Shown: positions 3,269-58,975 of the stretch, piece after piece
Position numbering within the stretch: position 1 is the first letter of the stretch
Layout: the number at the start of each line of letters is the position of its first letter
DNA from: a virus
Taxonomy: Duplodnaviria; Heunggongvirae; Uroviricota; Caudoviricetes
DNA length: 64,000 nt
IMG/VR virus record: IMGVR_UViG_3300008113_000007
Location: 1-64,000 of that record
Strand: one strand, 5' to 3'
Position numbers and translations under genes: made by a program
The notes under the pieces: model-generated
What the model was told of the DNA's origin: nothing
The model's database searches: none
What the model saw: the letters and a program-made list of their open reading frames with translations, nothing else

Positions 3269-3291
3269 TTTTTTAGGTGCAGAGTTTACTT

Positions 3292-3300
3292 AATATATAA
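3292..3300 (+). promoter_or_regulatory. late-promoter-like AATATATAA box 4 nt upstream of the ATG at 3305
   Basis: Identical motif and spacing as at 74-82. Confidence 0.4.
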
Positions 3301-4341: not shown

Positions 4342-5625
4342 ATGAAGAATCTTAAACTCGAACTCTTCAACTTCAAGAAAAACCTTTCGTTGGATCAAGA
4401 GGAGATTTCAGTGATAGTTGAGGGACATATGAATGCCTGCAACGAGACTTCGGAGAAGGTGGTTATCCTTTCTTTGAACGAGAGGCTCAAGCCTTACACT
4501 TACGACAAGTCTGTTAAGGGTCTGCTTGAGTCACTCAACGACGACATGAAGAGCAACGAGCTTCTATACGAGCTTAAGAACCTCTACAACGTCTTGAACA
4601 CTAAGAACGGCGGTGAGCTTTATAGACAGCCAATCAACGTTCTACTACAAACGATAAACCTTGAGGACGATCAAGACAGGATGTCTAAGGTTCTCAACGA
4701 GCTCGCGGTCTACGACTGGGTTCCTGAGATAAAACTTTTCGTCCACAACCTGACTAAGTCGCCTGAGCAGAGGACTAACCTCCTCAGCGGTGGTAAAGGA
4801 GAGTCTGTTTTCACAATAGTGGAGCAGGTGGAGGACGGTCACATCGCGCTTGTCAAGGACTCTTGGTTCATACTCACTGAGAACCTTATCGAGAAGACGC
4901 TACTCGAGAACCACATCAAGGATGAGGCGGATCTAAGATCGCTCAGAGTACTCGAGACTGCTATGAAGTACGCTAACATTGTTGATGACAGGATCAACTT
5001 CAGAATATCTGAGTACCTTACAATCGGTCTTTCTGTTGATAAAAAAGGTGGACTTTTCATAAACGACGACGAGATGAATGGCGAGACTACTCTCGAGAGC
5101 CTTTTCAACTCACCAATCGTTCCTATCGTGAACAAGAACTTCTATCCTATCCTGGTTGAGGTTTCTAAGAACCTTGATAAGTTCGTAGAGCTCGACGTGG
5201 TGAAGAGGGTGAACAACCTTATAAACCCGTACCTCGAGTGTTTCGCATTCAACTACAAGAACACGACATTCCTTTACAGGTGTGATGAGAGATACGGAAA
5301 CTCTTTCTACAAATACGAGTCAGCACTCGAGCTTGTGAACGAGGTCAGAAACGAACTCAACTACGACCTTACTTACTTCTACGAGAACAAACTCGGTAAA
5401 GAGCTTATCGTGAAGAGAAAACTCGAAGACAAAGAGAGAGAGGTAACTTTGAAACTTGAGGATGTGAACTTCAACATAGACAAACTCAAAGGTTCTATCA
5501 AAATGATTGGTGAGTCTGAGGTACTTACTACCGCACTCAACAACCTCGAGAAGAGAAAGACAGTTCTCGACGCAGAGCTTGCTGGCGTGAAGGAGCTTCA
5601 GTACAGAGAGAGAGTGAAACTATAA
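4342..5625 (+). CDS. hypothetical protein with C-terminal coiled coil
   Basis: 427-aa ORF with even coding periodicity; charged heptad-like C-terminal ~80 aa; no recognisable catalytic motif. Confidence 0.45.
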   Translation: MKNLKLELFNFKKNLSLDQEEISVIVEGHMNACNETSEKVVILSLNERLKPYTYDKSVKGLLESLNDDMKSNELLYELKNLYNVLNTKNGGELYRQPINVLLQTINLEDDQDRMSKVLNELAVYDWVPEIKLFVHNLTKSPEQRTNLLSGGKGESVFTIVEQVEDGHIALVKDSWFILTENLIEKTLLENHIKDEADLRSLRVLETAMKYANIVDDRINFRISEYLTIGLSVDKKGGLFINDDEMNGETTLESLFNSPIVPIVNKNFYPILVEVSKNLDKFVELDVVKRVNNLINPYLECFAFNYKNTTFLYRCDERYGNSFYKYESALELVNEVRNELNYDLTYFYENKLGKELIVKRKLEDKEREVTLKLEDVNFNIDKLKGSIKMIGESEVLTTALNNLEKRKTVLDAELAGVKELQYRERVKL

Positions 5626-5760
5626 TCACTACAAGACATAAATCGAAGAAATCTACCTCAGGGTAGATTTCTTCATTTATAAACTTTTGTAAATCAAAGG
5701 TATATAAAATCTCATAAAATCGCACAGGTGCATCGGCACCGAAAAAAATAGCGATTATTG

Positions 5761-6126
5761 ATGTACTTAAATAACAGAGAGCTTTATATCGAACTTGTTG
5801 TCAGCAAGGCACAGGGTAGACTAACCAGACCGGCACAGAAGATGCTGGAACTTCTTGCCAAGAAGACGATAAAAAAGATGAGGTACTGGTCCAACGACGA
5901 CAAGATGGACTGCTACCAGAGCGGGCTTCTCTACGTTTTCCAGAACTGGTACAACTTCAACGAGGAGAAGTCGGTCAACGCCTTCGCCTACTTCACCGAG
6001 ATATTCAAGCGCGGCATAGCCAAAGGTTACAACGACCTCTACAAAAAGAAAGGCGACAATGAACACCAAATCAGGCTCATCTCAATCGAAGGATCAAACG
6101 ACGGAATGGGACTCCACTCTCTTTGA
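5761..6126 (+). CDS. late sigma factor, T4 gp55-like (N-terminal/central part; reading frame appears to continue in +1 at ~6110-6126)
   Basis: 'YLNNRELYIELV' versus T4 gp55 'YVNNKELLQAII'; 'AFAYFTEIFKRGIAKGYNDLYKKKG' versus '[26 protein letters not shown]'. The first ATG is at 5761 (the track start at 5758 is a TTG). Confidence 0.7.
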   Translation: MYLNNRELYIELVVSKAQGRLTRPAQKMLELLAKKTIKKMRYWSNDDKMDCYQSGLLYVFQNWYNFNEEKSVNAFAYFTEIFKRGIAKGYNDLYKKKGDNEHQIRLISIEGSNDGMGLHSL

Positions 6127-6256
6127 CACTTACGACATAGTGGCAAGTCCTGGATTCGACGTCCGTAGTGCACTTTCCCGTTTCTGGAGACACGAGAGAC
6201 GTATCGAAAAAATCCGCGAGCTTTGGAACTTCGATGAGTCAAAGGACACCGTATAA
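6059..6256 (+). CDS. probable C-terminal continuation of the gp55-like gene in the +1 frame
   Basis: Frame-2 translation 'DSTLFDTYDIV...' resembles the gp55 C-terminal region 'DDDMVALVDETFIQDIY'; combined length ~165 aa, close to gp55 (185 aa). Confidence 0.45.
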   Translation: MNTKSGSSQSKDQTTEWDSTLFDTYDIVASPGFDVRSALSRFWRHERRIEKIRELWNFDESKDTV

Positions 6257-6258
6257 AA

Positions 6259-6284
6259 AAGACCCGTAAGGGTCTTTTTCTTTT
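6259..6284. terminator. bidirectional rho-independent terminator between the convergent gp55-like and GS genes (gaccc-gtaa-gggtc plus a T-run)
   Basis: Hairpin flanked by an A-run and a T-run. Confidence 0.6.
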
Positions 6285-7341
6285 AGTCTTCAATTAGAAC
6301 ATCGTCCGTGAGTATCGTCCTGACAATCCTCTCTACTACTAGGTAAGGATCTGCGTTCGATGCTGGCCTTCTATCCTCGATGTATCCTATCGCGTCAGCC
6401 TCGTTGATTGTCGACGGTATCCTAATCGACTTTGTCCTGTCCGCTATTCCCCAGCCGAAGTCCGTTATAGACGAAGTCTCGTTCGCACCGGTGAGCCTTG
6501 CCTCGTTGTTCTCGCCGTAGACTGCTATGTGCTCTGCGTGCCTTCTCGAAAGCTTCTCGCACATCTCTATTGCAATCTCCTTTTTGTTGACCTTGTCCTC
6601 TCTTATGGTCTTGGTCGAGAAGTTCACGTGCATTCCGGACCCGTTCCATCTCTCTCCCTCGAACGGCTTAGGATCGAGCTCTATCCTGTAGTCGTACTTC
6701 TCGCTCAGCCTGTGCAGTATGTATCTCGAAATCCACAGCTGGTCGGCTCCTTCCTCTGCCGTGACCGTTCCTACCTGGTACTCCCACTGGCCGAGTGCGA
6801 CCTCTGCGTTTATACCAGATACAGATATACCTGCCTTGATACATAGGTCGGCGTGCTCTTCTACGAATTCTCTACCTGAAACGTTGTTTCCGCCGACACC
6901 GCAGTAGTATTCGCCTTGCTCCCTAGGCTCGCCGTTCCATCCGAGTGGAAGTTCTGTCTTGTTGTCGAATATGAAGTACTCCTGCTCCCAACCGTACATT
7001 GTCTCGTCGTCGTTCTCACTGAGTATGTCTATCATCGCCGCCCTTGTGTTTGTCTCGTGTGGAGTTCCGTCCATGTTGTAGACTTCGCACAGCACGATTA
7101 TTCCGTCTTTCACGAACGGGTTGAGGAAGTAGTTCTTCGGAACCAACGCCAGCTCCGATTTGGAAGTCTCTGCCTGGTAGGTAGACGATCCGTCGAAGTT
7201 CCAGTTTGAAGCGGACTGCTTGCCCGATTTGAACTGTCTCAGTAGCTCTTCTGTGTCCCACGATGATTTTACAATCTTCGTCTTTGATCTTAGTTGCTGT
7301 GGTTTTGCACCATCAAGCCACACATACTCTAGTTTTTTCAT
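6283..7341 (-). CDS. glutamine synthetase, type II (eukaryote-like GSII) or a related gamma-glutamyl ligase
   Basis: GS signatures 'GEYYCGVGG' (GS 'G.YYC.VG'), ATP-binding 'KPFEGERWNGSGMHVNFSTK', 'VALGQWEYQVG', C-terminal 'SIRIP' arginine region; ~350 aa is typical of GSII. Confidence 0.85.
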   Translation of the reverse strand: MKKLEYVWLDGAKPQQLRSKTKIVKSSWDTEELLRQFKSGKQSASNWNFDGSSTYQAETSKSELALVPKNYFLNPFVKDGIIVLCEVYNMDGTPHETNTRAAMIDILSENDDETMYGWEQEYFIFDNKTELPLGWNGEPREQGEYYCGVGGNNVSGREFVEEHADLCIKAGISVSGINAEVALGQWEYQVGTVTAEEGADQLWISRYILHRLSEKYDYRIELDPKPFEGERWNGSGMHVNFSTKTIREDKVNKKEIAIEMCEKLSRRHAEHIAVYGENNEARLTGANETSSITDFGWGIADRTKSIRIPSTINEADAIGYIEDRRPASNADPYLVVERIVRTILTDDVLIED

Positions 7342-8660: not shown

Positions 8661-8679
8661 AGTCCGGCATTTTTGGTTT

Positions 8680-8688
8680 TATATATAA
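8680..8688 (+). promoter_or_regulatory. late-promoter-like TATATATAA box upstream of the 8703 gene
   Basis: Motif family recurs upstream of many genes. Confidence 0.35.
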
Positions 8689-9914: not shown

Positions 9915-9929
9915 GGGGCAGCCGTTTTT

Positions 9930-9938
9930 TATATATAA
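9930..9938 (+). promoter_or_regulatory. late-promoter-like TATATATAA box upstream of the portal gene
   Basis: Motif lies 20 nt upstream of the ATG at 9959. Confidence 0.4.
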
Positions 9939-9958: not shown

Positions 9959-11701
9959 ATGGCCTCTTATAACTATTTCAATAACAACAATAACAACAAC
10001 CAGGCGTTCGGTATTCAGAACTCCGGTGAGAACAAAGGCTTCTTCAACCGTATACTGAGGAACCTGTCGAACCACGGTATGAACTATGACGACATGATCA
10101 TTCGCAATCAGGTCGGTGTTGGAATAAACGAGGATCCTTACGCATCTAAAGGAAATTCGATGTATGATTTCTTTAGTCAACGAGCAGTGGCGTCGGTTCT
10201 CGGCCGCAAGTCCGTTCCGTATCTTGATCGTTCGTATCCCGACAAGAGGAGAATACTGAGAGAGTACTCGATTAAGGACGAGATCAGGGACTTCGTGAGC
10301 CAGGTGGCCGACGAGTGTGTGGTTTACAACGATGACAGGGATTTCTGCTCTGCGCGCGCTCTTTCCACCGGATACAGCAAGGAGATACAGGACAAATACC
10401 TCGAGTACTTTGAAAGGATATACAACAAATACGGCTTCTCTGACAGTGTCACGGCTTTCAACCTGATAAAGGACTTCCTAATCGACGGGTACGTTGCTAT
10501 GGAGATAGTCTACGATGACAAGAAGAAGAACATAATCGCTTTCAACCGACTGAGACCTGAGACCATCGTCCCTGCATACGAGCCAAACGTGGGTCATCTA
10601 TGGATACAGTATCCTGAGGATCCTCAGCTCAGAAGGATTTTTCTCGACTCTCAGATAGTTTTCATATCTTACTCTACTCAGAACGACTTCTCAGAGACTT
10701 CCTACGTGGAAGGTCTCATCAAGCCATACAACCAGCTGAAGATACTCGAGCAGACGAAGATAATGTTCAACATCATCAACGCGACGCTCTACCAGGAGTT
10801 CAAGATTCCAATCAAGGGTCTTTCCAGGCAGAGGGCAGAGGAGCAGATTGGTCAGCTGATACACGACTACTCCGAGGAGGTCGAGTGGGACGACACTCTG
10901 GGAACGCTGACAATCAACGGTTCTAAGCACCTTCCGTTCAACAAGCAGATTTGGTTTCCTGAGGGCGACGCTGGATCGCCGTCGATGGAACTTAAGTCTC
11001 CGCAGGGTCACGACCTCAACGAGGACGGTATGCTTAAGTGGTTCCACCAGGCGCTCAAAAGGGCGTCTAAGATACCTCTGAACCGATTCGAGGGCGAGGC
11101 CGGCGGTGGTAACCTCATAACTGACGCGGCCGAGATGACGCGCGACGAGATAAAGTTCCACAACTTCATCGGAAGACTACGTGCCAACTTCAAAGAATTG
11201 ATAGTCAAGCCTTTGAAGCTACAGCTGCTTATAGAGTTTCCTGAACTTATAGATGACGATAAATTCCTAAACGAGGTAGACATCGAGTTCTACTCGAACC
11301 AGGTATTCGAGGAGTGGAAGAAACTTGGTAACCTTGAGAAGAAAGCCGGTATAGTCGGAACGCTACTTGGTGTTATGAACGGTGAGAAGCCTTACTTCCA
11401 CATCGAGTGGATTATGGACAACGTATTCAAGTTGTCTCCTGAAGAGAAGGCCGAGAACGCAAGATACTGGGCCAAGGATCCAACTGCGGCCGGTTCGGCG
11501 CCTGAAGGCGGTGGTGAGGCGGGTGCTCAAGGCGGCGGCGGCGGTGGCGAGATGGGTGCCCAAGGTGGTGGCGAAGCTCCTGCACAGGGAGGTGCTCAGG
11601 CTCCTCCTGCCGAGGGTGGTGGCGAGGCTCAGGCTCCTCCGGCACAGGGAGGTGCTCAGGCTCCTCCGGCACAAGGCGGTGGTGGCGAGTTCGAGTTCTA
11701 A
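9959..11701 (+). CDS. portal vertex protein (T4 gp20-like) with a poly-Asn N-terminal tract and a Gly/Ala/Gln/Pro-rich C-terminal low-complexity extension
   Basis: 'QVADECVVYNDDRDF' versus T4 'EIVSDAIVYEDDTEV'; 'PYNQLKILEQTKIMFNI' versus 'PANQLKLLEDAVVIYRI'; 'WFHQALKRASKIPLNRF' versus 'WFRQALYMALRVPLSRI'; C-terminal '...EFEF' like T4 '...EDF'. Confidence 0.9.
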   Translation: MASYNYFNNNNNNNQAFGIQNSGENKGFFNRILRNLSNHGMNYDDMIIRNQVGVGINEDPYASKGNSMYDFFSQRAVASVLGRKSVPYLDRSYPDKRRILREYSIKDEIRDFVSQVADECVVYNDDRDFCSARALSTGYSKEIQDKYLEYFERIYNKYGFSDSVTAFNLIKDFLIDGYVAMEIVYDDKKKNIIAFNRLRPETIVPAYEPNVGHLWIQYPEDPQLRRIFLDSQIVFISYSTQNDFSETSYVEGLIKPYNQLKILEQTKIMFNIINATLYQEFKIPIKGLSRQRAEEQIGQLIHDYSEEVEWDDTLGTLTINGSKHLPFNKQIWFPEGDAGSPSMELKSPQGHDLNEDGMLKWFHQALKRASKIPLNRFEGEAGGGNLITDAAEMTRDEIKFHNFIGRLRANFKELIVKPLKLQLLIEFPELIDDDKFLNEVDIEFYSNQVFEEWKKLGNLEKKAGIVGTLLGVMNGEKPYFHIEWIMDNVFKLSPEEKAENARYWAKDPTAAGSAPEGGGEAGAQGGGGGGEMGAQGGGEAPAQGGAQAPPAEGGGEAQAPPAQGGAQAPPAQGGGGEFEF

Positions 11702-11747: not shown

Positions 11748-12194
11748 TGCGGCTTTGTCGCTTTTTGGGTGGTCGAAGTAAAGCGTCTTGTGACCTCGTT
11801 TGTTGTCGTAGTACCTGACCTTCACGTCCAGTCCTTCGTCGAGTATCGTCTTGATTGTTTGTCCAATTTGGCTAGGCAGGATCTCACCTGATATTTTCAC
11901 CTCGAGGATCTGCTCGTCCTTTATTATGAAGCTGATTGTGTCCGTCCTGAACGCTGCATTGTGTATGTACTGGATGGCGTCCGTGTTAGTGTATACGAGC
12001 AGGTTGGCATCTTCGATGTCGAACTGAACCTTCTTTCCCTGGTTTAGAAGCCCGGTGATCCTGACCTCTCTTTTGAACTCGGCCCACTGTTTGTACCTTC
12101 TTAGCATGCTCTCGAAGGATTCCAGGGTGATGCCTTCCTCGAGCTCTACATCGAAGGTGCTTACAACCATATCTCTTTCCTTCAGCTTTCCCAT
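11745..12194 (-). CDS. hypothetical protein, translationally coupled to the upstream RNase gene
   Basis: Start codon overlaps the stop of the 12194..14092 gene. Confidence 0.45.
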   Translation of the reverse strand: MGKLKERDMVVSTFDVELEEGITLESFESMLRRYKQWAEFKREVRITGLLNQGKKVQFDIEDANLLVYTNTDAIQYIHNAAFRTDTISFIIKDEQILEVKISGEILPSQIGQTIKTILDEGLDVKVRYYDNKRGHKTLYFDHPKSDKAA

Positions 12195-14092
12195 CAGTTG
12201 AACTTTATGAAGTCAATCTGTTTTTTCTCTAGGTCCACGGACTTGATGACGATCTTGATTGGATCGCCTAGCCTTATCTTTTCGCCGAACTCGTTCATCA
12301 CGGCGTAGCTGTCAGGATAGGCAGTCCATTTTCCGCCCATTTCCGAGATTCTTATCATTCCCTCGCACTTGCTCTCCGTGAGCTCTACGTAGATTCCTCT
12401 CTCGAGTACGCCTGATACGATTCCGTCGAACACCTGTCCGATTCTGTCCTGTAGGTACTCCGCCTGCTTGTACTTCACCGAGTCTCTCTGTGCCTTCGTC
12501 GCTACGACCTCCTGCTTGGAGATCCATTCGCACTGCTTGTCCAGCTCGCCGTGGTTTATCTCTTTGTTGTAGCCTTCTGCGTTGAGCGCCTTCGAGAGAA
12601 GTCTGTGTGCGAGTATGTCACTATACCTCCTTATTGGTGATGTGAAGTGTGAGTAGTGTTGGAACCCTAGTCCGTAGTGTCCGATGTCTTTGGTCGAGTA
12701 CTTCGCCTTCTGCTGAGCCCTTATGATTAGGGTGGTTATGATGTTCTCCTCTGGTGTTCCTTTGGAGTCTCTCATAAGCTGGTTTATGGCCAGCTTGGTC
12801 TTCTCTGCTGAGTTTCCGTAGTTTATCATATAGCCAAGCCCGGAGATGAAGGTCTTCACGTGCTCTAGCTTTTCCTCTGCTGGCTCTTCGTGTATCCTGT
12901 TCACGCACGGAAGGTGCCTAGACTTTATGAAGCGCGCGACCTCCCTGTTGGCGAGTAGCATGTACTCCTCGATGAGGTGGTTGGCGTCCTTCTGTTCCTT
13001 AAGGTAAACGCCAACCGGCTTCTTCCCGTCTCCGTCGAGTTTGAACTTGACCTCTACCCCGCCGATTTCCATCGAGCCTCCGTTCATCCTTCTCTTCCTC
13101 ATCTTCTTTGCCAGTCGGTCTAGCTCGAGTATGGCCTTCTCTGTGTCTAGCTCGGCGTTGCCTCTCTCGATTACCTCCTGTGCCATCTCGTATGAGAAGT
13201 CTTTGTCGACCCTTACCGCGGTTCTTCCGAACCAGCTGTCCTCTATCCTACCGTCGTTGTTCAACTCGACTATGACTGAGTAGCACAGCTTGTCACTTCC
13301 GGATTTCAGTGAGCATATTCCGTTTGATAGCTTGTGTGGTATCATCGGCACGCACCTGTCAACTAAGTAGACGGAGCTGGAGCGCTTGTACGCCTCTTTG
13401 TCTAGTTCGCTTCCCGGCCTTACGTAGTGTGATACGTCTGCTATGTTTATTGCGATTAGTCTTCTTCCGTTCTCGAAGTGTAGAGAGATTGTGTCGTCCG
13501 CGTCCTTCGAGTCGTGAGGGTCAATACCGATCGTGGTCCACGACCTTATGTCTCTCCTCTTCTTTATCTCCGACTCCGGTATGACCTCTGTTATGAGCTC
13601 CGCCTCGTTCAGTACTTCCTGCGGGAAGTCGATAGGTAGGTTGTATTCGTACATTATGGCGTTCATTTCCGTCTCGTTCTCGCCTTTCAATCCCAGTACT
13701 TTGGTTATCCTTCCTCTCGGAGATTTCTTTTCCTTTTCCCAGTCGATCATCTCGACGATGACTTTCTGGCCATCCTGTGCTTTGTGGTCTCCTTTGATGT
13801 AGAAGTCGACGACCATCTTCGGGCTGTCTGGGACAACGAAGGTGTGGTTCTTGCTAACCTGTGCAGTTCCTACGAAGGTCGTCTTGAACCTCTCTAGCAC
13901 GTCGACGACCTTCGCCTCCATTTTGCGTTCGCCTTTGAACAGAACTGCCCTGACCTTATCGAGGTGCAGGGCGTTGGCGGTCTTCTTCTTGTGCACGAAG
14001 AACTCTCTTTCGTCGATTTTGATTGTTGCGTTACCGGAACCGGTGAACTCTATCTGGGCCTCTATCGTGTCGCCCTCTGTGTATTTACTCAT
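12194..14092 (-). CDS. RNB-family 3'-5' exoribonuclease (RNase R / RNase II-like) with N-terminal OB/cold-shock domains and a C-terminal S1 domain
   Basis: RNB motif I 'IDPHDSKDADDTISL'; catalytic 'HYGLGFQHYSHFTSPIRRYSDILAHRLL'; C-terminal S1-like 'GQVFDGIVSGVLERGIYVEL'. Confidence 0.85.
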   Translation of the reverse strand: MSKYTEGDTIEAQIEFTGSGNATIKIDEREFFVHKKKTANALHLDKVRAVLFKGERKMEAKVVDVLERFKTTFVGTAQVSKNHTFVVPDSPKMVVDFYIKGDHKAQDGQKVIVEMIDWEKEKKSPRGRITKVLGLKGENETEMNAIMYEYNLPIDFPQEVLNEAELITEVIPESEIKKRRDIRSWTTIGIDPHDSKDADDTISLHFENGRRLIAINIADVSHYVRPGSELDKEAYKRSSSVYLVDRCVPMIPHKLSNGICSLKSGSDKLCYSVIVELNNDGRIEDSWFGRTAVRVDKDFSYEMAQEVIERGNAELDTEKAILELDRLAKKMRKRRMNGGSMEIGGVEVKFKLDGDGKKPVGVYLKEQKDANHLIEEYMLLANREVARFIKSRHLPCVNRIHEEPAEEKLEHVKTFISGLGYMINYGNSAEKTKLAINQLMRDSKGTPEENIITTLIIRAQQKAKYSTKDIGHYGLGFQHYSHFTSPIRRYSDILAHRLLSKALNAEGYNKEINHGELDKQCEWISKQEVVATKAQRDSVKYKQAEYLQDRIGQVFDGIVSGVLERGIYVELTESKCEGMIRISEMGGKWTAYPDSYAVMNEFGEKIRLGDPIKIVIKSVDLEKKQIDFIKFN

Positions 14093-14474: not shown

Positions 14475-14608
14475 CGTAAAAAATCCTCTATTGTTCTATT
14501 CGTGGAAAGACATTTGTTTCATCTTTCTCTGTAAAAAAACCACCCATATACAAATGTAGCGAAAAGAAAGATATATATACACTAAACGCACAAAAAATAA
14601 CTAATTAC

Positions 14609-16786
14609 ATGAAACCAGTATTGATTGTAGAAAACTCTACTAACTCTCTTGTGAGGGAAAGTGGCGGGACTGGTAAGAAGGATTATGTATTGGGCGGTAC
14701 ATTCACCGAGTTCGACATTAAGAACAGAAACGAGAGAGTGTACACGGCCGACAGATTCCTTCCTGCGCTTACTGAGATGAACGAGAGGATGAACAACCTC
14801 GGAGTCGTCTACGGTGAGTTCGACCACCCGGATGTTTTCGATACTTCTCTTTCTAGGGCGTCTCACATAATCACGAAAGCTGATTATATCAAGGAGCAGA
14901 ACCTAGTGGCGGGTGAAATCAGGTTACTTAGTACTTATTGGGGTAAGGAAGCAAAGGCACTCGTCGACGACGGCTGCCCTCTTTTTGTTTCTTCTCGCGC
15001 CGCAGGTATTACTGAATCTGATGGTACAGTCTCATTGAAGAAGCTTTTCACTTACGACATCGTGGCGGACCCTGGGTTTGCTTCGGCTAAGATGAGTGTG
15101 AAGGTCCTTAATGAGTCACTTGGCTTTGATAACCCGAAATCTAACTTTAGGATATACGAGATGTCCGATGAGTCAAAAATCAACGATTTATTCAACATGA
15201 ACAAAAACGAGTACGTTACTAAACAGCAGTTGACTGACTACTCTCAGTATTTGGTCAAGGAGTTGGCTTCTACTAAGAAGGAGGTTAAGAGTGCCATCAC
15301 TAAGGGCAACATGAACCCTAAGAGGCTTGAGCAACTTCTCGAGTACTACGAGGAGCTCAACAAGACAAATTCACAAGTTGTGAAATACCTAGACTACCTG
15401 GCTGAGAAAGTTCAGATCATGGTAAACGAAAACAAGTCTTTGAAGGAGACTACTGACAAGCTTATCAAGCACAACGACTACCTCGCTGAGAACCTTGAGA
15501 AGGCTGTAAACTATTCTGAGTACCTTGCTGAGAACCTAGACAAGAACATCGCTTATTCTGAGTATGTTGCTGAGAACCTAGACAAGAACATCTCTTATTC
15601 TGAGTACCTTGCAGAGAACCTTGATAAGAACATCGCTTATTCTGAGTATATCGCAGAGAACCTCGACAAGAACATTTCCTACTCTGAGTACATTGCAGAG
15701 AACCTCGACAAGAACATCGCTTACAGCGAATACCTTGCTGAGAACCTAGACAAGAACATCGCTTATTCTGAGTACATTGCAGAGAACCTCGACAAGAACA
15801 TCGCTTATTCTGAGTACATCGCTGAGCACGTAGACAACTCTATTGCTTATTCTGAGTACCTCGCTGAGCACGTAGAGGGTAACATCGCTTATTCCGAGTA
15901 CCTCGCTGAGCACCTCGATGACAACATCGCTTACTCTGAGTACATCGCAGAGAACCTCGACAAATCAATCTCTTACGCAGGAATGATTACCGAGAAACTC
16001 AACGGCGGAAAAGTTTTCGAATCAGTTGAGGACAACTTCCCATCACTTACTGCTCACGGTTTTGAGGCGGTAGAGGATGACGATGATGATGCTGATGCTG
16101 ACTACGATAATATGAACAACGACGACGACGACGCAGATTGCGGCCCTGGTATCGCCGAGGTTTCACCTGAGAAGGTACACGCACACAACGCTGATGCAGA
16201 TATGGATCACGATGACGACGCAGATGCTGACGCTGACGCACACAACTGGAACCGCGAGGTATCAGGACACAACGAGTCTGAGTTGTCTTCACAAATAAAT
16301 ATGCTAATCGAAGAAGCTAAAAAACGTAAAGTTTCCGAGACATCTGACCTGAACTTCCTTAAGTTCTTGTCTAAATCACAGGTAGATAGTTTCTACGCGC
16401 TCACAAACGAAGAGCAAGAAGCAGTTAAACTTCACATAAACGAAAGAAGTTACTTCACACAGAAGGACGTGCTTACACTCATCTCTGAGGCGCTTTCTAC
16501 CAAAACTGAATCTCTTGAGGAAAGAGTGATCAGAATGATGCCTGAAAACACCAAGGCTATCTGGGCTCAACTTACCGAATCGGCTAAGAAGTCTATACTT
16601 TCACAAGCAAGACTTTACCCTGAGGAAATGTTGATGACCGAATCACAAGTAGAGCACTTCTGGGCTACCAGAGCACTCAAGAAAAACGAGTCTACTAAGA
16701 AGCTTGTATCTCACGACATCATCCAAGAGGATAGATTGTCTGACAACGAGATGAACGCTATCATGGAGAGGTTCAAAAACGTGTAA
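14609..16786 (+). CDS. prohead core protease (T4 gp21-like, residues ~1-210) fused to a scaffold-like C-terminal region with ~12 tandem 14-aa repeats and poly-acidic tracts
   Basis: 'PVLIVENS...GGTFTEFDIKNRNERVYTADRF' versus T4 gp21 'PQLLIESW...GIFMQAEVVNRNKRLYPKRIL'; 'GEFDHPDVFD' versus 'GELNHPPRAN'; 'VSSRAAGITESDG' versus 'VSSRGLGSLTDTNEG'. The repeats and the acidic C-terminus resemble the gp22 scaffold. Confidence 0.85.
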   Translation: MKPVLIVENSTNSLVRESGGTGKKDYVLGGTFTEFDIKNRNERVYTADRFLPALTEMNERMNNLGVVYGEFDHPDVFDTSLSRASHIITKADYIKEQNLVAGEIRLLSTYWGKEAKALVDDGCPLFVSSRAAGITESDGTVSLKKLFTYDIVADPGFASAKMSVKVLNESLGFDNPKSNFRIYEMSDESKINDLFNMNKNEYVTKQQLTDYSQYLVKELASTKKEVKSAITKGNMNPKRLEQLLEYYEELNKTNSQVVKYLDYLAEKVQIMVNENKSLKETTDKLIKHNDYLAENLEKAVNYSEYLAENLDKNIAYSEYVAENLDKNISYSEYLAENLDKNIAYSEYIAENLDKNISYSEYIAENLDKNIAYSEYLAENLDKNIAYSEYIAENLDKNIAYSEYIAEHVDNSIAYSEYLAEHVEGNIAYSEYLAEHLDDNIAYSEYIAENLDKSISYAGMITEKLNGGKVFESVEDNFPSLTAHGFEAVEDDDDDADADYDNMNNDDDDADCGPGIAEVSPEKVHAHNADADMDHDDDADADADAHNWNREVSGHNESELSSQINMLIEEAKKRKVSETSDLNFLKFLSKSQVDSFYALTNEEQEAVKLHINERSYFTQKDVLTLISEALSTKTESLEERVIRMMPENTKAIWAQLTESAKKSILSQARLYPEEMLMTESQVEHFWATRALKKNESTKKLVSHDIIQEDRLSDNEMNAIMERFKNV
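15476..15980 (+). repeat. in-frame tandem repeat, 42-nt unit x ~12, encoding N(I/S)(A/S)YSEY(L/I/V)AE(N/H)(L/V)DK
   Basis: Direct inspection of the translation; every unit carries an (L/I/V)-A-E tripeptide. Confidence 0.85.
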
Positions 16787-16873: not shown

Positions 16874-18589
16874 ATGTCACACATTAGAATAGACAAGGCG
16901 AAAGCCACTAAAAAGTGGGCACCGGTTCTCGAGAACATGGGTGTCACAGGTGATAGAGTAGAATGGATGGCGGAGTACGCTGAGTTCCACTCAATCAACG
17001 AGAACGCGTATGTAAACGCTTCTAACGTAGGCGGTATGGGCGCTGTATTGAACCCGGTTGTTGGTGACCTCGCAGGTAACCCAAGAACAGGTAACGTACT
17101 TTCACCAGTTGCTGGTTCAGGTGACGTAGGTCAAAACCTTCTTCCAGTTGCGATGAAGATTGCAGCTCAGACTATCGGTCTTGACCTCGTAGCTGTTAAG
17201 CCGTCTCCAGGTCCGAAAATCGACCTTCTTTACATCGACTTCCAATACGACGATGTTAGGTCTACAGACGGAACTGACGAGAGACCACAGGTGTTCAAAA
17301 TCAAATTGAGCTCTGATGACATGATCAAAGTAAAAGACACTGTTACTAAATTTGTTGGTAACGCAGTTCTTACTACTGGCGGTCTTACAAGTGGTAGACT
17401 TTTCGTAGACAACATTCAAGGTAGCTCTGATCTTAAGACTACTGAGTCTGCTGCTGCTCTTGCTACTACTAAGTACAAAAAACTCGAGTTCCTCGGATAC
17501 TCAAGGGTAGACGGTTACCCAATGTTCAGAGCTTGGAGACAAGACAACACAGCTCACACTGCTACTGGTGTTGCTGCCGCATCTACTCGTGCTTTCTGGT
17601 CTTTCGATCAAACAAGAAACACGTTCAACCCAACACAGTCTATGGCTGATCAGATTTCGTACATCGGTACTGCGTCTGTAACACCACAAGAGATTCAGTT
17701 GATTTCTGCACTTGAAGACCACATCCCTGGTTTCTCTGCAAACTGGACAGCTAACATCTCTTCTGGAGACTACCCAATGAACAGGAAACAAGATGACGAT
17801 TCTTACGCTGGTGTTATCGGACCTAAGATCTCTTCTAAGACTATCCAAGTTGGTACTATCGAGGTATCTTCTGCACTCAGAAGAACTGAGATTGAGGACA
17901 TCAAAGCTAACACAGGTATGGACATCGTACAAAAGATGGAATCTATCCTCGTGAACGAGCTTTCCCAAACTATCTCTAAGCAAATCGTCGCTAAGATTTT
18001 CGAAATGGGTGACCTCAACAGAACATCTGCACCTGCATTCGGTGGAAGTGCAACTATCACTGGTCACACAATCTTCGACCTTGACACAGCATACGCTTCT
18101 GGTGGTTCCCTTGGTGGTGAGACTACTCACGCTGTACAAAGGAAGCTTATCACTAAGATAGCTCACGCTTCTAACTTCATCGCGACTGAGGGTCGTGTAG
18201 GTCCTGCTCAATACCTTATCACAAACGGAGGTCTTGCTGCTGCTCTACAAGACATCGCTGGTTACACAATCAACCCAGTGAAATCTAAACTCAACGGACA
18301 AGGTCAGCTTTATCCAGTTGGTTCAATAGGCGACATCGCTATCTACGTTGACCCATACATGAGATACAACGACAACAGAATCGTCCTTGGTAGGAAGAAC
18401 AACCCTGATCAACCAGGTATCATCTTCGTTCCTTACCTTATGGCACAATCTATCTCAGTTATTTCTGAGGCGACTTTCGCACCAAGAATGCTCTTGAGAT
18501 CTAGATATGCTGTTGCAGAAGTTGGTTGGTTCCCACAAAAACAATTCATGACTATCCAAGTAAGAGATGTAGCTCAATTGCTCAACTAA
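16874..18589 (+). CDS. major capsid protein (T4 gp23-like)
   Basis: 'KATKKWAPVLENMGV' versus T4 gp23 'KAELLNKWKPLLEGEGL'; 'LLPVAMKIAAQTIGLDLVAVKPSPGP' versus 'IGPAVMGMVRRAIPNLIAFDICGVQPMNSP'; 571 aa; lies downstream of the protease/scaffold gene as in T4. Confidence 0.9.
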   Translation: MSHIRIDKAKATKKWAPVLENMGVTGDRVEWMAEYAEFHSINENAYVNASNVGGMGAVLNPVVGDLAGNPRTGNVLSPVAGSGDVGQNLLPVAMKIAAQTIGLDLVAVKPSPGPKIDLLYIDFQYDDVRSTDGTDERPQVFKIKLSSDDMIKVKDTVTKFVGNAVLTTGGLTSGRLFVDNIQGSSDLKTTESAAALATTKYKKLEFLGYSRVDGYPMFRAWRQDNTAHTATGVAAASTRAFWSFDQTRNTFNPTQSMADQISYIGTASVTPQEIQLISALEDHIPGFSANWTANISSGDYPMNRKQDDDSYAGVIGPKISSKTIQVGTIEVSSALRRTEIEDIKANTGMDIVQKMESILVNELSQTISKQIVAKIFEMGDLNRTSAPAFGGSATITGHTIFDLDTAYASGGSLGGETTHAVQRKLITKIAHASNFIATEGRVGPAQYLITNGGLAAALQDIAGYTINPVKSKLNGQGQLYPVGSIGDIAIYVDPYMRYNDNRIVLGRKNNPDQPGIIFVPYLMAQSISVISEATFAPRMLLRSRYAVAEVGWFPQKQFMTIQVRDVAQLLN

Positions 18590-18607: not shown

Positions 18608-18639
18608 AAAAGCCACTCGAAGAGTGGCTTTTCTCTTTT
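18608..18639 (+). terminator. rho-independent terminator after the capsid gene (agccactc-gaa-gagtggct plus a T-run)
   Basis: 8-bp hairpin plus TTTCTCTTTT. Confidence 0.65.
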
Positions 18640-18648
18640 AATATATAA
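18640..18648 (+). promoter_or_regulatory. late-promoter-like AATATATAA box 4 nt upstream of the ATG at 18653
   Basis: Same motif and spacing as at 74-82 and 3292-3300. Confidence 0.4.
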
Positions 18649-18652
18649 ACTT

Positions 18653-19129
18653 ATGATTATAAAGAGATTTTCAAAGTATCTTGAGAACTTCGTTGATCCG
18701 GTAAAGGTCGACCTGAAGAAGTTCGACGGAAGCGTCAGGCACAAGATTTTCAACTCATCATCCGGTGAAGTGTTCAACGTCTGGATATCTAAAGACGTTG
18801 ATGCCTCGCTGAAGCTCACACGGCTCTACGTCGGTAAGCACGCGCTCGACCTCGGCGGTTACGCGCCCAGCACGAACGACGTTTGGCTCGGTAAAGAGGA
18901 ATATGTTGCTGTGGTCAAGACGAACAAAGACGACATAGTGCCTAAAGACGTACTTATCGATGTCGCATTCGAACTGAGAAGACTGGCGAATACTCACAAA
19001 GAGGACTTAGACGAAGTTGAAATGTCTAAGAGCTCATTCGTTTCAGTTCGCAACGGAGAGGTTTTGATAGACAGAAAAAACTCTGGTAGAGTGATATTCT
19101 CGCCGGGAAATGTTAGATTTGAATTATGA
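18653..19129 (+). CDS. hypothetical protein
   Basis: ORF; its stop overlaps the start of the peptidase gene (ATGA). Confidence 0.45.
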   Translation: MIIKRFSKYLENFVDPVKVDLKKFDGSVRHKIFNSSSGEVFNVWISKDVDASLKLTRLYVGKHALDLGGYAPSTNDVWLGKEEYVAVVKTNKDDIVPKDVLIDVAFELRRLANTHKEDLDEVEMSKSSFVSVRNGEVLIDRKNSGRVIFSPGNVRFEL

Positions 19130-20148
19130 GAAAAAGAATAGACGAAAAGGAGTTCGGTGGCGACTACACAGACGTGAGGTCGACCTTCCTTTCGCTTACG
19201 TCGAAGACATACCCGCACGGCCACGAGGAAGAGGTTCTCGAACTACTACCATCGCTGGACAGAGACGAGTTCGGAAACTACTACAAAGTAATCGGCGAAC
19301 GTCCAACAACGATGTTCACGTCGCACCTCGACACCGCAGATCACAGGCAGAACAAGACCGAAAGATACTCTTCAATCGAGAACGGCGAAGAGCAAATCAC
19401 AACCGATGGTAACACAATACTCGGCGCAGACGACAAAGCCGGCGTCACGGTAATGCTCTACATGATGGAAAAGAAAGTCCCGGGTCTTTACTACTTCTTC
19501 ATCGGTGAGGAAAGAGGAGGCATAGGATCCAAGAGGCTCGCAAACGATTACGACTCTGTCGAGTTAGTAAAAGACGTGGTAAGATGTGTTTCTTTCGACA
19601 GGAGAGGCACAGGATCCGTAATAACCAAGCAGCTCGGAAGACAGTGCTGCTCTGATACCTTTGCCAACGCGCTCGCCGAGCAATACAACGGCCTGGGTAT
19701 GCAGATGGCACCTGACCCGACCGGAATCTTCACCGACTCTGCGATGCTGATGGGTCTGATACCGGAGTGTACCAACATCTCCGTTGGGTATATGAACGAG
19801 CACACTGGCAAAGAGGTGCAGAACATCACACACCTCGAGAAACTTTGTGTGGCCAGCTGCAAGGTCGACTGGGAATCACTGCCGACCGAGAGAAGTCTCG
19901 AAGACGCCAAAAAGTCTGAAAACGACTATCCCAGTGAGTACAAAGGCATAGTCAAGGACGCCAAGAAACTGGATTCATTCGGTGGTGTAGCAGAAGAGCA
20001 ATATGGTTGGGCACTTTACTTCGACATAGAGGGCCTCAAGCCTTCGGCCGCGGCGTCCGAGCTTAACGGCATCTCTCAACTAATCGATAAGCACGAGTTG
20101 GACAGCCAGTGCTATACCGACAACGGATATCTAATAATAGCACTATGA
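19126..20148 (+). CDS. MH-clan zinc metallopeptidase (M20/M28/M42-like)
   Basis: Metal-ligand motifs in canonical order: 'SHLDTAD' (HxD), 'GADDKAGV' (bridging Asp), 'IGEERGGIGS' (catalytic and metal-binding Glu-Glu). Confidence 0.6.
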   Translation: MRKRIDEKEFGGDYTDVRSTFLSLTSKTYPHGHEEEVLELLPSLDRDEFGNYYKVIGERPTTMFTSHLDTADHRQNKTERYSSIENGEEQITTDGNTILGADDKAGVTVMLYMMEKKVPGLYYFFIGEERGGIGSKRLANDYDSVELVKDVVRCVSFDRRGTGSVITKQLGRQCCSDTFANALAEQYNGLGMQMAPDPTGIFTDSAMLMGLIPECTNISVGYMNEHTGKEVQNITHLEKLCVASCKVDWESLPTERSLEDAKKSENDYPSEYKGIVKDAKKLDSFGGVAEEQYGWALYFDIEGLKPSAAASELNGISQLIDKHELDSQCYTDNGYLIIAL

Positions 20149-22253: not shown

Positions 22254-22269
22254 CGTTCTTTGATTATAA

Positions 22270-22278
22270 TATATAACA
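22270..22278 (+). promoter_or_regulatory. AATATATAA box immediately upstream of the tmRNA-like gene
   Basis: Same motif as upstream of the structural genes; about 10 nt before the GGGG 5' end. Confidence 0.35.
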
Positions 22279-31945: not shown

Positions 31946-31988
31946 CTTCGTTTTTTCTTTTATATATTACGAAAGTGGCCTTCTTCCT

Positions 31989-34900
31989 CTAAGTGTTGTT
32001 CGACATATATAGAAGTACCGTCTGTGTTATGAGGTTAGCTTCTACGAAGTTCGAGTTGTTTCCTGAGAACGTTCCGGTGAGTTCCATCGAGCCCTGTACG
32101 TGTAGTGTAGTTGCTGGTGATGCGGTTCCGATACCTACGTTTCCTGTCGAGTGTACTATGAAAGGTGTCGCGTCTGGATTGGCACTGTCTTCTACGACGA
32201 GTGCGTTTCCTGTTCCTGTCTGCGTTATCCTTACGAGATCTGTAGAGGACGCGCTTGAGACTACAAGGCCTGTCAGTGTGAGTGCACTTTGCCAGTTCGC
32301 GCTACCTATGTTGTCCTGTGAGACCAGGACTTTGTTCGTTCCTTCTGTTCCGTCTATTAGCCTGACGCTGTACTTCGTCTGGAATGAAGTGGTCTGCACG
32401 TTGAATATGCCGCCTATGTAGGTACCGATACCGAACAAGTCGTCCGACGAGTTCGCTACTATTCCCGCAACCGTTCCGCCGCCTGCGTCGGAAAACGCGT
32501 TGGTCACTATTCCGTAAGTGTCACCGTCCGAAGACGCAAACGCCTGTATCGCGGACGTAGCCCCGAGTGCGTACAATCCAGCGAGCGGCCCGTATGTCTC
32601 AATTCCGTAACTCGTCGATACAGAGTATATCCTGGCAGAGAGGCCGTCGTTTGTAGTTCCGGTCTTTAATCTTCCGTCGGCCGTTATGATGAAAGGCGTC
32701 GTATCTGGATTCGATGAGTCTTCCACGACGAGCGAGCTTCCTGTTCCGGTCTGAGTTATCCTGAGCAAGTCTTGCGAAGAAGAGCCTGATGCTATAATCA
32801 GTGGTACGGTCGTTGTGTTCGCTGTTGCTCGAAGTGTGTTTCCGTCGAAAGTGAGGTTTGCCTCGCCGTTGAGTCCGGTCGTCGTTCCGGTGGATGTTAC
32901 TACCCGGTTGTCACCAAAGTTCGTCACTGTGGTACCACCTCCTGAACTGGCTTGCCATGTCGCAACCCCGTTCGCGTCCGAAGTTAGAACATATCCTGCC
33001 TGCTGTGTTCCGTCGACTATCCTTACTGCACCACTCGTCGTTGAGAAGACATGAAGTCCGGTCGAAGGCGATGCCGTTCCCACACCGACGTTTCCTGCCG
33101 CAGTTATTATGAAAGGCGTTACATCAGGGTTCGCACTATCCTCAACAACAAGCGCGTTGCCCGTTCCTGTCTGCGTTATCCTAACTACGTCGCCAGTACT
33201 TGATGCCGAAGCTATTATTGATGTAACATATATGTTGCTGCTCCAGTTAGTGTCCCCACTCGCGTTGACAGATGTGAGAATTTTGTTTGTGTCCTGCGAT
33301 CCGTCTTGTAGTCTTAGAGCATACGCATTCTCTCCGAATCCGTCGGCGTAGAAGCTTCCTGCGATGTATGTGTTTCCGTTACTAGGCGTGTCTGACGGGT
33401 AGGCACTGGCTTTAATTCCGAAGTATGTGCCTACTGAGTCTCCGTACGCCAATGCCTCTACACCTGCAGCTTGTGAGCCTGGTGTGTTTGTCCTTCCGTA
33501 CAGACCGACTTTGGTTGCCGAGTCTCCGAAGATTCCACCATTAGTGGCGAGAACGTACGCTTTGTAACCAAATGCAGATGGTGTTGATAAACCTATACCA
33601 ACATTTCCGGCGTTGTCTATCACGAACGGAGAAGAGTCTGGATTTGTTGCATCCTCGACGACGAAGGCGTTTCCGGTACCGGTCTGTGTTATCCTGAGTA
33701 AGTCCTGTGTCGACGAACCTGATGCAAGTATCAATGGTACAGTCGTGGTGTTTGCTGTCAAACGTAGCGTGTTTCCGTCGAATGTTAAGTTACTTTCTAC
33801 CGTTGCGTTTGGTGCTGAGCCGTTCAAAGTTATGACACCATTGTCGGTTGTCCCTGTAAGGCTTAGTAATCCCGATGTTCCGGACGAACCTGATGTTCCT
33901 GAACTTCCACTACTTCCCCTGGTACCTGAGGAACCGGAAGAACCTGATGTGCCCGAAGATCCGGAGTTACCAGACGAACCGGAAGATCCTGTGCTACCTG
34001 AAGTTCCTGATGACCCAGAAGAACCAGTGTTGCCAGATGATCCTGAAGATCCGGTTGAACCACTTGATCCAGAAGTTCCGGAAGACCCTGAGCTTCCACT
34101 ACTACCGGTAGAGCCCGACGAGCCACTTGTTCCCGAGCTACCAGATGAACCACTTTGTCCGGATACATTGAAACTGACAAAGCACAAATCATTGTTTGTG
34201 AAGTTGGCGTCTGCTATAACGTTACTTATAGTTATTGTCCACCATCCGGTGTTATCGGTCGTTGCACTAAATTCATATGTGTGAAACCAAGTTAAGTCAC
34301 TTTGCTTAGTTATCTTTATGAAGCCTCTTCTACTTGCAGATCCGTAGTTTGCAAGTGAACTGAAGAAGTTTTGTAAGTCGTTATTACCATTTCTATCAAA
34401 TCTATCTATGTAAAGTGCAGTGGCACTACCCATAGTTAGGTTGTTTAGTCTGAAGAAACCTGATCCCGGATCCGACGCGGTTATTGTTGTACTGTAAGTA
34501 TACTCAAAACTCGCAGAGTCTATACCGTTCACACCTGATGTTCCTGTAGAACCACTACTTCCTGTGGATCCAGAAGTTCCGGAAGAACCTCTCGTTCCAG
34601 AAGAACCTGATGATCCAGAAGTTCCTGAAGACCCTGAACTTCCTGTAGAACCGCTCGAACCTGAACTTCCGGTTGAGCCCGATGTGCCACTTGAACCACT
34701 GCTTCCTGTAGAACCGCTTGAACCGGTGCTACCTGATGTTCCTGATGTTCCAGAAGACCCAGAAGACCCTGAACTTCCAGTTGAACCAGATGACCCAGAA
34801 GACCCTGATGTTCCCGAAGACCCCGAACTTCCGGTTGAACCGCTTGAACCGGAACTTCCGGTTGAACCCGATGTACCACTCGAACCACTACTTCCTGTAG

Positions 34901-38528: not shown

Positions 38529-38550
38529 AAGATATACTCTTTTTTGAGGT

Positions 38551-38560
38551 TATATATTAA
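38551..38560 (-). promoter_or_regulatory. late-promoter-like box (minus strand reads TTAATATATA) upstream of the giant fiber gene
   Basis: Motif family; ~23 nt upstream of the start. Confidence 0.35.
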
Positions 38561-49028: not shown

Positions 49029-49069
49029 TCCTTATATATTAACTATCATGAGTCTAGCCCTGCATTTAT

Positions 49070-49081
49070 TAATATATAAAC
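49070..49081 (+). promoter_or_regulatory. TAATATATAAAC late-promoter-like box upstream of the 49098 gene; a mirror-orientation box at ~49031-49044 serves the minus-strand fiber operon
   Basis: Divergent arrangement of the motif family. Confidence 0.35.
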
Positions 49082-52426: not shown

Positions 52427-52440
52427 GGTTTTTATATATA
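52427..52440. promoter_or_regulatory. divergent TTTTATATATAATG box between the GT gene (minus) and the 52470 gene (plus)
   Basis: Palindromic TATATATA core can serve both strands. Confidence 0.35.
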
Positions 52441-52469
52441 ATGACGATTGATAAAAAACGAGAATCAAC

Positions 52470-58942: not shown

Positions 58943-58975
58943 GACGTAATTTTTATTTTATATATTATTTTGCAA

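Follow-up and report, generated by a model that had tools for sequence, protein, structure and literature searches.

The 64,000-nucleotide stretch analysed here, called the window throughout, covers positions 1 to 64,000 of the IMG/VR record IMGVR_UViG_3300008113_000007, assigned to the Caudoviricetes, and contains at nt 14609..16786 of its plus strand one uninterrupted ATG-to-stop open reading frame (ORF) of 725 aa. The gene lies in a head module, with a T4 gp20-type portal gene upstream and a gp23-type capsid gene directly downstream. The best explanation of its product is a bifunctional head-assembly protein, with an enzymatic role predicted from sequence, encoded by a huge phage, as yet uncultivated, that belongs to the Mahaphage clade. 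The parts of the ORF are as follows, a slash marking the predicted scissile bond:

14609..16786, plus strand: whole fused ORF (protease and proposed scaffold), 725 aa; same architecture in loci L001-L005, in 120 close relatives (676-727 aa) and in 75 of 76 complete IMG/VR loci
14609..15160, plus strand: gp21/assemblin-fold serine protease domain, aa 1-184, with His73 at nt 14825-14827, Ser128 at nt 14990-14992 and Asp150 at nt 15056-15058
14624..14632, plus strand: I6-V7-E8, candidate N-terminal self-activation site (IVE/N), aligning near L-I-E9 of T4 gp21
15152..15160, plus strand: I182-Y183-E184, closing the protease domain; candidate release site, aligning with I-T-E of T4 gp21 and 121Q gp601
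15197..15199, plus strand: Met197, fusion junction and possible internal start, aligning exactly on the gp602 start codon of phage 121Q (L006 nt 4622)
15221..15463, plus strand: helical pre-repeat segment, aa 205-285, with two degenerate slots in 14-aa register (aa 258-285), collinear with the N-terminal part of 121Q gp602
15464..16009, plus strand: 13-unit array (aa 286-467) in perfect register, each 14-aa unit bearing (L/I/V)-(A/T)-E
15506..15799, plus strand: central homogeneous ...AENLDKN block of seven units, the only part with variable copy number (4-7 in relatives)
16010..16273, plus strand: acidic linker, predicted disordered, aa 468-555 (30 D+E vs 3 K+R, net charge -27)
16274..16786, plus strand: C-terminal domain (aa 556-725), all-helical, conserved and constant in size; the proposed capsid- or portal-binding end

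Architecture of the fused open reading frame

The 725-aa protein matches the 'head maturation protease' family phrog_207 (2.5e-31), and its match to Pfam PF03420 (Peptidase_S77) reaches 17.9 bits (E 0.0023), below the curated cut-off of 27; a few relatives have precomputed PF03420 matches. An AlphaFold2 (AF2) model built on a diverse alignment has a whole-protein mean predicted local distance difference test (pLDDT) score of 69.5 and exceeds 90 over aa 30-160; it takes the place of a first run on a shallow alignment (mean pLDDT 52.6), which was dropped. When the model was searched with Foldseek, the only significant matches in the PDB were chains of T4 gp21 (E 2e-6, template modelling score 0.70). 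His73, Ser128/129 and Asp150 align with the T4 motifs NHP (H85), SSRG (S140) and VDAV, and His73, Ser128 and Asp150 are invariant in 56 relatives with identities down to 28%; His-Ser-Asp is the catalytic triad of the gp21 protease family (PMC5694885). On these comparisons the window protease is a sequence-divergent member of the Peptidase S77/T4 gp21 family.

Past the protease domain the chain is predicted to be helical overall from aa 205 to 465, with AF2 helices at aa 205-232 and 237-364; a hairpin break drawn at aa 365-371 has low confidence, and an intramolecular hairpin is not inferred from it. Tandem Repeats Finder places 10.8 copies of a 42-nt period at nt 15512-15963 (82% matches, 0 indels). 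The original prediction, made from the letters of the window and its reading frames, had described about 12 units at nt ~15476-15980; the period of 42 nt or 14 aa holds, and the count and limits are refined to 13 units at nt 15464-16009 with the consensus I-A-Y-S-E-Y-(I/L)-A-E-N-L-D-K-N. The tripeptide expected in each unit, (L/I/V)-A-E, recurs in all 13, with Ala or Thr in its middle position. Differences between the codons of the units are mostly at third positions (376, with 215 at first and 79 at second positions), and the peptide is therefore conserved by selection, not freshly duplicated. Across aa 258-467 there are 14 [LI]xE sites, as compared with 5.5 +/- 1.9 in composition-preserving shuffles.

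The proposal that a 14-residue period would fit a coiled coil is borne out by the predicted helicity and by the hydrophobic power spectrum of the rod, which peaks (7.3) at 3.5 residues and is flat (0.01) at 3.6. In the heptad assignment of the unit, position a is I/A, d is S/L and g is I/L, and conserved Tyr residues occupy the outward positions c and f, an arrangement whose small-residue core and Tyr-rich second face would suit lateral packing of rods. A family profile search of the PDB matches designed antiparallel coiled coils and chemoreceptor hairpins. The net charge of the rod is -27. Matches of the repeats to PSCyt2/DUF1549 and YpmT in Pfam were sub-threshold and, as with a single-sequence PDB match to ribosomal protein uS7 (E 0.038), were judged to be repeat or composition artefacts.

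The linker that follows has a pLDDT <40. Asp-rich tracts had been noted here from the start, and they are present at aa ~490-546 (nt 16076-16246) within the acidic segment of aa 468-555. In the window the linker is rich in Asp, Ala and His (DDDDADADYDN...DHDDDADADADAH), and its counterparts in relatives, of 39-149 aa, are rich in Glu, so that a hypervariable low-complexity stretch is flanked by two conserved parts. The C-terminal domain has a pLDDT of ~80 and spans 170-173 aa in the window and in five huge-phage genomes. Structure search and Pfam give no recognisable fold or family for it: Pfam hits to CagD and Pro-kuma_activ were sub-threshold chance matches, and hits in BFVD reflect whole-protein relatives and give no separate identity.

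The rarity implied for this arrangement did not hold up, as the fused form is the rule among relatives. A word-indexed search recovers 4447 relatives, the best 120 of which are all full-length, and an exhaustive search of 50%-identity cluster representatives gives 245 at E<1e-30. Of the best 150 representatives, those with the protease motifs and a length of at least 500 aa number 122, and in 94 of these 122 the dominant self-similarity lag is 14, 28 or 42. The prediction that protease and repeats share one ORF agrees with the unbroken 725 codons of the window, with uninterrupted ORFs of 688-740 aa in 75 of the 76 complete IMG/VR loci, and with the five curated complete huge-phage genomes (462-735 kb), all of which carry the unbroken fusion. 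The sole broken copy, at 3501-5593 of L089 (IMGVR_UViG_3300037067_002482), is frameshifted in a run of A near codon 227, beyond which the scaffold part resumes in another frame; this is probably a homopolymer error and could be a natural split.

More distant forms differ in the middle of the protein. A BFVD search finds long relatives in cultured Tenacibaculum jumbo phages, including ORF-300 of PTm1 (L091 41854-43548; 564 aa), which sits between the portal and capsid genes and in which seven 16-aa repeats (IEKW...LSEG), each with an L/I-x-E site, are followed by a charged linker and a homologous C-terminal domain. In the Prevotella phage Lak-B2 (MK250021.1; L009 ~4911-6560) the protease is joined to an acidic tract of ~200 aa and a recognisable C-terminal domain. 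The Lak-B2 frame crosses six in-frame stops, presumably the recoded TAG of Lak phages (the codon identity is presumed). In sum, sequence comparison indicates that the fusion is old and widespread and that its middle part is the evolvable piece.

Proposed scaffold identity, candidate cleavage sites and competing explanations

The Escherichia coli phage 121Q has separate genes for its protease (gp601, 207 aa) and for a gp22-like scaffold (gp602, 371 aa); the two are neighbours in the same frame, 66 nt apart. A single tblastn alignment of window aa 14-370 spans both genes, with the 121Q stop codon and spacer appearing as a gap. The C-terminal 528 aa of the window protein occupy the position of gp22, past the protease and immediately before the capsid gene, and no separate gp22-like gene lies between the portal and capsid genes in the window module or in any of 85 related loci. 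The scaffold part is acidic (D+E 0.21 vs K+R 0.10), and its array has 6.7 [LI]xE sites per 100 aa, a density close to that of T4 gp22 (5.9) and the 121Q scaffold (6.5), as against 0.5 and 1.5 in two capsid proteins; the T4 gp22 sequence also holds LAEN, IAEK and IAEQ. The suggestion that a gp21-type protease is fused to the equivalent of the gp22 scaffold is thus supported by the 121Q collinearity, by the coincidence of Met197 with the scaffold start and by the lack of a separate gp22-like gene in the module. By descent, as judged from these alignments, the fused gene is the T4 gp21 and gp22 pair merged.

T4 gp21 cleaves after Glu in L/I-x-E. The enzyme breaks gp22 down into small peptides and is self-activating, through removal of nine of its N-terminal residues (PMC9958956). 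At the candidate activation site of the window protein, I6-V7-E8, every one of the 120 close relatives has IVEN or IIEN, and at the candidate release site, I182-Y183-E184, 95 of them have IYE. Within the array the comparison extends to 842 in-register units from 122 distant relatives, in which L/I/V occupies P3 in 88%, Ala occupies P2 in 59% and Glu occupies P1 in 76%. No other part of the unit is as well conserved across these relatives as the (L/I/V)-A-E tripeptide, whose P1 Glu falls at the solvent-exposed heptad position b. Such conservation is compatible with a role in cleavage, short of proof.

The capsid protein carries related motifs. Its N-terminus (window 16874-17010, aa 1-45) shares KW-P-(L/I)-(L/I/V)-E with T4 gp23, and aa 42-45 form a conserved (I/M/L)-x-E-N, in which the P1' residue is Asn, the one also found there in the scaffold repeats. 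A maturation site at aa 42-45 is a suggestion only, the alignment to the T4 gp23 site being unreliable.

We consider it probable that the protein is a self-digesting protease-scaffold fusion, in which a gp21-type protease and a counterpart of the gp22-type scaffold share one chain and the former cuts every unit of the latter. The helical rod (aa 205-467) would bundle with other copies to form an internal core on the portal, the constant C-terminal domain would touch the capsid shell or the portal, and the acidic linker would fill space and exclude DNA. Upon shell closure the protease would activate itself at IVE8/N and then release itself at IYE184/M, and the freed enzyme would attack the array, cutting each (L/I/V)-A-E on the C-terminal side of its Glu. 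The rod would be converted in this way to ~13 acidic 14-residue peptides, ~7 of them near-identical, able to exit the prohead before DNA packaging.

Several observations weigh against this proposal. Activity, cleavage and presence in the prohead are predictions from sequence. Similarity to T4 gp22 is undetectable (BLASTP E 0.5), and the match between the window and 121Q scaffolds is weak and biased by coiled-coil structure and composition (E 1e-4 in a single comparison). The candidate release site is IYD in 24 of the 120 close relatives, one unit of the array has Val at P3, and proteases homologous to gp21 share the P1 Glu and differ at P3, as in SPN3US gp245, which cuts A-x-E (PMC10052503). 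The Lak-B2 homologue has no 14-aa repeat rod; the rod is therefore dispensable to the fusion, and genomes of this size (0.5-0.7 Mb) may encode another scaffold at some other place. Finally, fusion forces a 1:1 ratio of protease to scaffold unless a scaffold-only product is made, which is far from the ratio in the T4 head, where ~55-100 copies of gp21 accompany ~580 of gp22 (PMC9958956, PMC5694885).

A T4-like stoichiometry would be restored if little full-length protein and much scaffold-only protein were made, the latter from Met197, as in herpesvirus UL26/UL26.5 and lambda C/Nu3. We hold this refinement tentatively, as possible and on balance doubtful. Met197 lies exactly on the 121Q scaffold start codon and does not vary within the close clade, even in a member of 35% identity, and T4 gene 21 has an annotated internal start of its own; however, in the wide family Met197 is kept in 26 of 56 members and replaced by Asp or Glu in 19 of the 56, and the fused ORF has no ATATATA promoter-like element inside it. 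No ribosome-binding signal could be scored at Met197, and that test is uninformative because only 6 of the 63 predicted window genes are preceded by a Shine-Dalgarno-like core, their leaders being A-rich. The mismatch in ratio could also mean that the extension only tethers a few protease molecules in the prohead, as the C-terminal tail of the HK97 protease does, and that a separate, unrecognised protein builds the core. The scaffold requirement of T4, ~10 times that for protease, speaks for such a tether, as do the hundreds of unannotated genes in genomes of this kind and the Lak phages, which keep protease, acidic tract and C-terminal domain; as Lak lacks the rod, universal conservation is limited to the protease and the C-terminal domain. 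We nevertheless judge a tether unlikely, because the junction maps exactly to the start of an annotated gp22-like gene in 121Q, because no other candidate is found in the portal-capsid module across 85 loci, because site density and acidity are like those of gp22, and because a rod of ~260 residues is longer than a mere tether would call for.

The rod could also escape degradation and remain in the head, as a protein that is internal or is ejected, or serve in ion binding or as a decoy; the LAE motif would in that case have a purely structural part in the coiled coil. The heptad pattern lends itself to this account, since L/I at g and Ala at a suit a small-residue antiparallel coiled coil, the PDB profile matches are antiparallel coiled-coil designs, AF2 draws a helical hairpin (albeit with a low-confidence break), and giant phages package many internal proteins (PMC5694885, PMC10052503). 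However, Glu is kept at the exposed b position in 76% of the 842 units, beyond what a structural need would call for, the unrelated 16-aa repeat of PTm1 also retains one LxE per unit, and the charges of the rod and linker (-27 each) would oppose DNA packaging if they remained; an undegraded rod is thus very improbable. To an error of assembly or annotation, by which two genes were joined or the repeat was collapsed or expanded, we give almost no credence. The L089 frameshift near codon 227 and the tendency of short-read assemblies to miscount repeats are the points in its favour. They stand against an ORF unbroken in 75 of 76 complete independent assemblies and in five curated genomes, and against indels that fall unit-wise in one block with conserved flanking units; the array is moreover assemblable because its units are only ~76-82% identical in DNA.

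Unit number, rod length and comparison with known systems

Variation in copy number among isolates had been anticipated and was found when units were counted in relatives: among the 110 close relatives with parsable units the number ranges from 10 to 13, and only the central block varies. The window's 7 NLDKN units are the maximum seen. Array indels are of whole units and always inside this block, and the flanking units hold their position in the listed relatives, and by the same pattern in IMG/VR loci with parsable units, with NLEKA first and HVDNS, HVEGN, HLDDN, NLDKS and KLNGG as the last five.

Rod length, measured from the equivalent of aa 203 to the end of the array, was compared with genome size in five complete genomes, the 80 IMG/VR contigs being fragments of <=276 kb. 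It is 214 aa at 462 kb, 242 aa at 636 kb, 251 aa at both 635 and 642 kb, and 281 aa at 735 kb; in the window it is 265 aa. Rod length thus rises with genome size over the five genomes, which make up only three effective size classes of related phages. The length of coiled-coil scaffolds has been reported to track capsid size in HK97, D3 and T5 (PMC12749128). A further idea is that the 14-aa unit is a modular element of scaffold length, and that gain or loss of NLDKN units, each worth ~2 nm of helix, would tune procapsid radius and hence genome capacity; any rod length would stay fully degradable because each module has its own cleavage site. We regard this as speculative and rather unlikely to hold. 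Two cases count against a general ruler: the ~550-kb Lak phages have no rod, and PTm1, with a genome of 225 kb, is by a rough estimate about equal to the 462-kb phage in total spacer length. If true, the idea would provide a slippage- or recombination-based route to the evolution of capsid size in the largest known phages.

The comparison with T4 encompasses the protease fold, the catalytic triad, the order portal, protease, scaffold and capsid, and an acidic helical scaffold dense in L/I-x-E sites, including those of LAEN and IAE type; T4 gp21 also has its N-terminal I/L-x-E self-cleavage site at the place of the window candidate. The differences are that T4 has two genes where the window phage has one polypeptide, that gp22 is 269 aa long as compared with a scaffold part of 528 aa here, that the strict 14-aa array and the 170-aa end domain occur only in the latter, and that the window head module has no equivalents of gp67 and gp68. 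121Q shares the collinear similarity over gp601 and gp602, the portal and capsid synteny and a periodic ...(I/V)LAEE... in gp602; it differs in that a stop codon and 66 nt split the genes, and in having neither a regular 14-aa array nor a homologous C-terminal domain. Among cultured Bacteroidota phages the likeness extends to PTm1 ORF-300 and the 527-aa protein of pT24, which have the same architecture and synteny, LxE-per-unit repeats, a charged linker, a homologous C-terminal domain and a protease that in PTm1 is 36% identical to that of the window (E 7e-24). The seven-unit, 16-aa repeat of PTm1 contains Trp and Pro and is not heptad-periodic, in contrast to the window array, and its genome is 225 kb. 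In GenBank the PTm1 and pT24 proteins are named 'prohead core scaffolding protein and protease', which is the generic label of T4 gp21.

Protease and scaffold are joined in other systems as well. The herpesvirus precursors HSV-1 UL26 and HCMV UL80a consist of protease, linker, scaffold and a capsid-binding C-terminus, and self-release and scaffold cleavage precede DNA packaging; the herpesvirus protease has a Ser-His-His triad and cleaves at Ala/Ser. The UL26-type precursor has the assemblin protease fold and the protease-scaffold order in common with the window protein. Its scaffold is without a tandem-repeat rod bearing a site per unit, and nested expression is proven for UL26/UL26.5, whereas for the window phage it is conjectural. 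In P2 the scaffold is part of the protease, gpO (PMC6893505), and in both P2 (gpO) and lambda (C/Nu3), as proposed for the window, one gene gives a protease and an internal scaffold that is self-cleaved away (PMC6893505; PMC10945586). The P2 and lambda capsids are, by contrast, small and of T=7 type. To our knowledge, moreover, their proteases belong to families unrelated to the window protease and have no repeat array. The delta domains of HK97, D3 and T5 are likewise coiled-coil scaffolds removed by the prohead protease; they differ in being fused to the capsid protein, ~100-160 aa long and non-repetitive. Fusion of protease and scaffold is thus already known as a principle, from P2 and the herpesviruses. 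A literature search found no paper on the present fusion or its array in huge phages, and none that takes up the fusion in PTm1 or pT24.

Head module, host and significance

The genes and elements that surround the fused ORF are these:

9959..11701, plus strand: portal gene, T4 gp20-type (Pfam Portal_T4, 2.5e-57), at which the head module begins; homologous to the portal gene directly 5' of the fused gene in L003 and L005
11745..14474, minus strand: variable insert of three genes, namely orf149, an RNase R/RNB-like 632-aa protein (Pfam RNB 2.1e-99, CSD2, S1) and orf129 (DUF7487); outside the fusion, setting its upstream boundary
14571..14579, plus strand: possible promoter, a ATATATATA element ~30 nt 5' of the start codon; the related motif T[AT]ATATATAA is over-represented
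16874..18589, plus strand: major capsid gene, T4 gp23-type (Pfam Gp23, 2.6e-28), presumed partner and substrate of the fusion

Among the 85 related loci covered, 80 have the capsid gene 3' of the fused one, and it is present wherever the flank is available. On the other side, the gap between the portal and the fused gene in these loci is 0.3-0.4, ~1.1 or ~3.1 kb and is set by the variable insert, which is almost absent in the first state, reduced to orf129 in the second and full in the third; this variation makes the gap an insertion hot spot. In the window the insert places an RNase R/RNase II-like exoribonuclease of 632 aa (12194-14092, minus strand) inside the head module, between the portal and the protease-scaffold gene. 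Two genes past the capsid gene, a 340-aa protein (19126-20148, plus strand) matches phrog_4191 'peptidase' (7.9e-71) and is kept at that place in 37 of the 85 loci; from its sequence it may be a second peptidase tied to the head module.

The motif T[AT]ATATATAA occurs in 15 copies in the window, as compared with 0.39 expected by shuffling, and most copies lie 5-25 nt upstream of start codons. They include 73-82, 3291-3300, 8679-8688, 9929-9938, 18639-18648, 22267-22276, 31960-31969, 38550-38559, 49032-49041, 49070-49079, 52432-52441 and 58958-58967. The motif is similar to the late promoter of T4, TATAAATA, and probably serves as a promoter of the phage; cores of a weaker form, ATATATA, are found ~30-40 nt upstream of the protease-scaffold gene (14571/14573) and of the capsid gene (16832). 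Elsewhere in the window, two giant ORFs on the minus strand (31989-38003 and 42114-47015) encode probable fibre or surface proteins of 2004 and 1633 aa with little charge (D+E ~5%, K+R ~2%) and are flanked by paralogous families of ~140-aa and ~310-aa ORFs.

The nearest database genomes are those of the uncultured huge phages LR745206 (635 kb), LR756502 (642 kb), LR756504 (636 kb), LR756501/3 (735 kb) and LR756500 (462 kb); a nucleotide search of phage records found no near-identical genome. All of these except LR756500 match the 634-, 636-, 642- and 735-kb genomes of Al-Shayeb et al. 2020, which were grouped there with the Lak phages as the 'Mahaphage' clade, the clade with the largest known phage genomes (634-735 kb), with hosts predicted to be Bacteroidetes (PMC7162821). 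The scarcity of Shine-Dalgarno sites in the window is consistent with a host in the Bacteroidota, the group predicted for its relatives of 634-735 kb.

A consequence of the proposed fusion is that a likely scaffold would be identified for the Mahaphage clade, whose members have the largest known phage genomes. A scaffold fused to an assemblin-fold protease, as in the herpesviruses, would constitute a further architectural parallel between phages and herpesviruses. Should the ideas of cleavage and of a ruler both fail, what remains is the solid annotation of a widespread, previously unnamed protein family. The modular rod, its natural variation in unit number and the candidate site in each unit could make up an engineerable system in which scaffold length is related to capsid size and protease specificity is probed, and cultured PTm1, which has the same architecture, is a possible experimental model.

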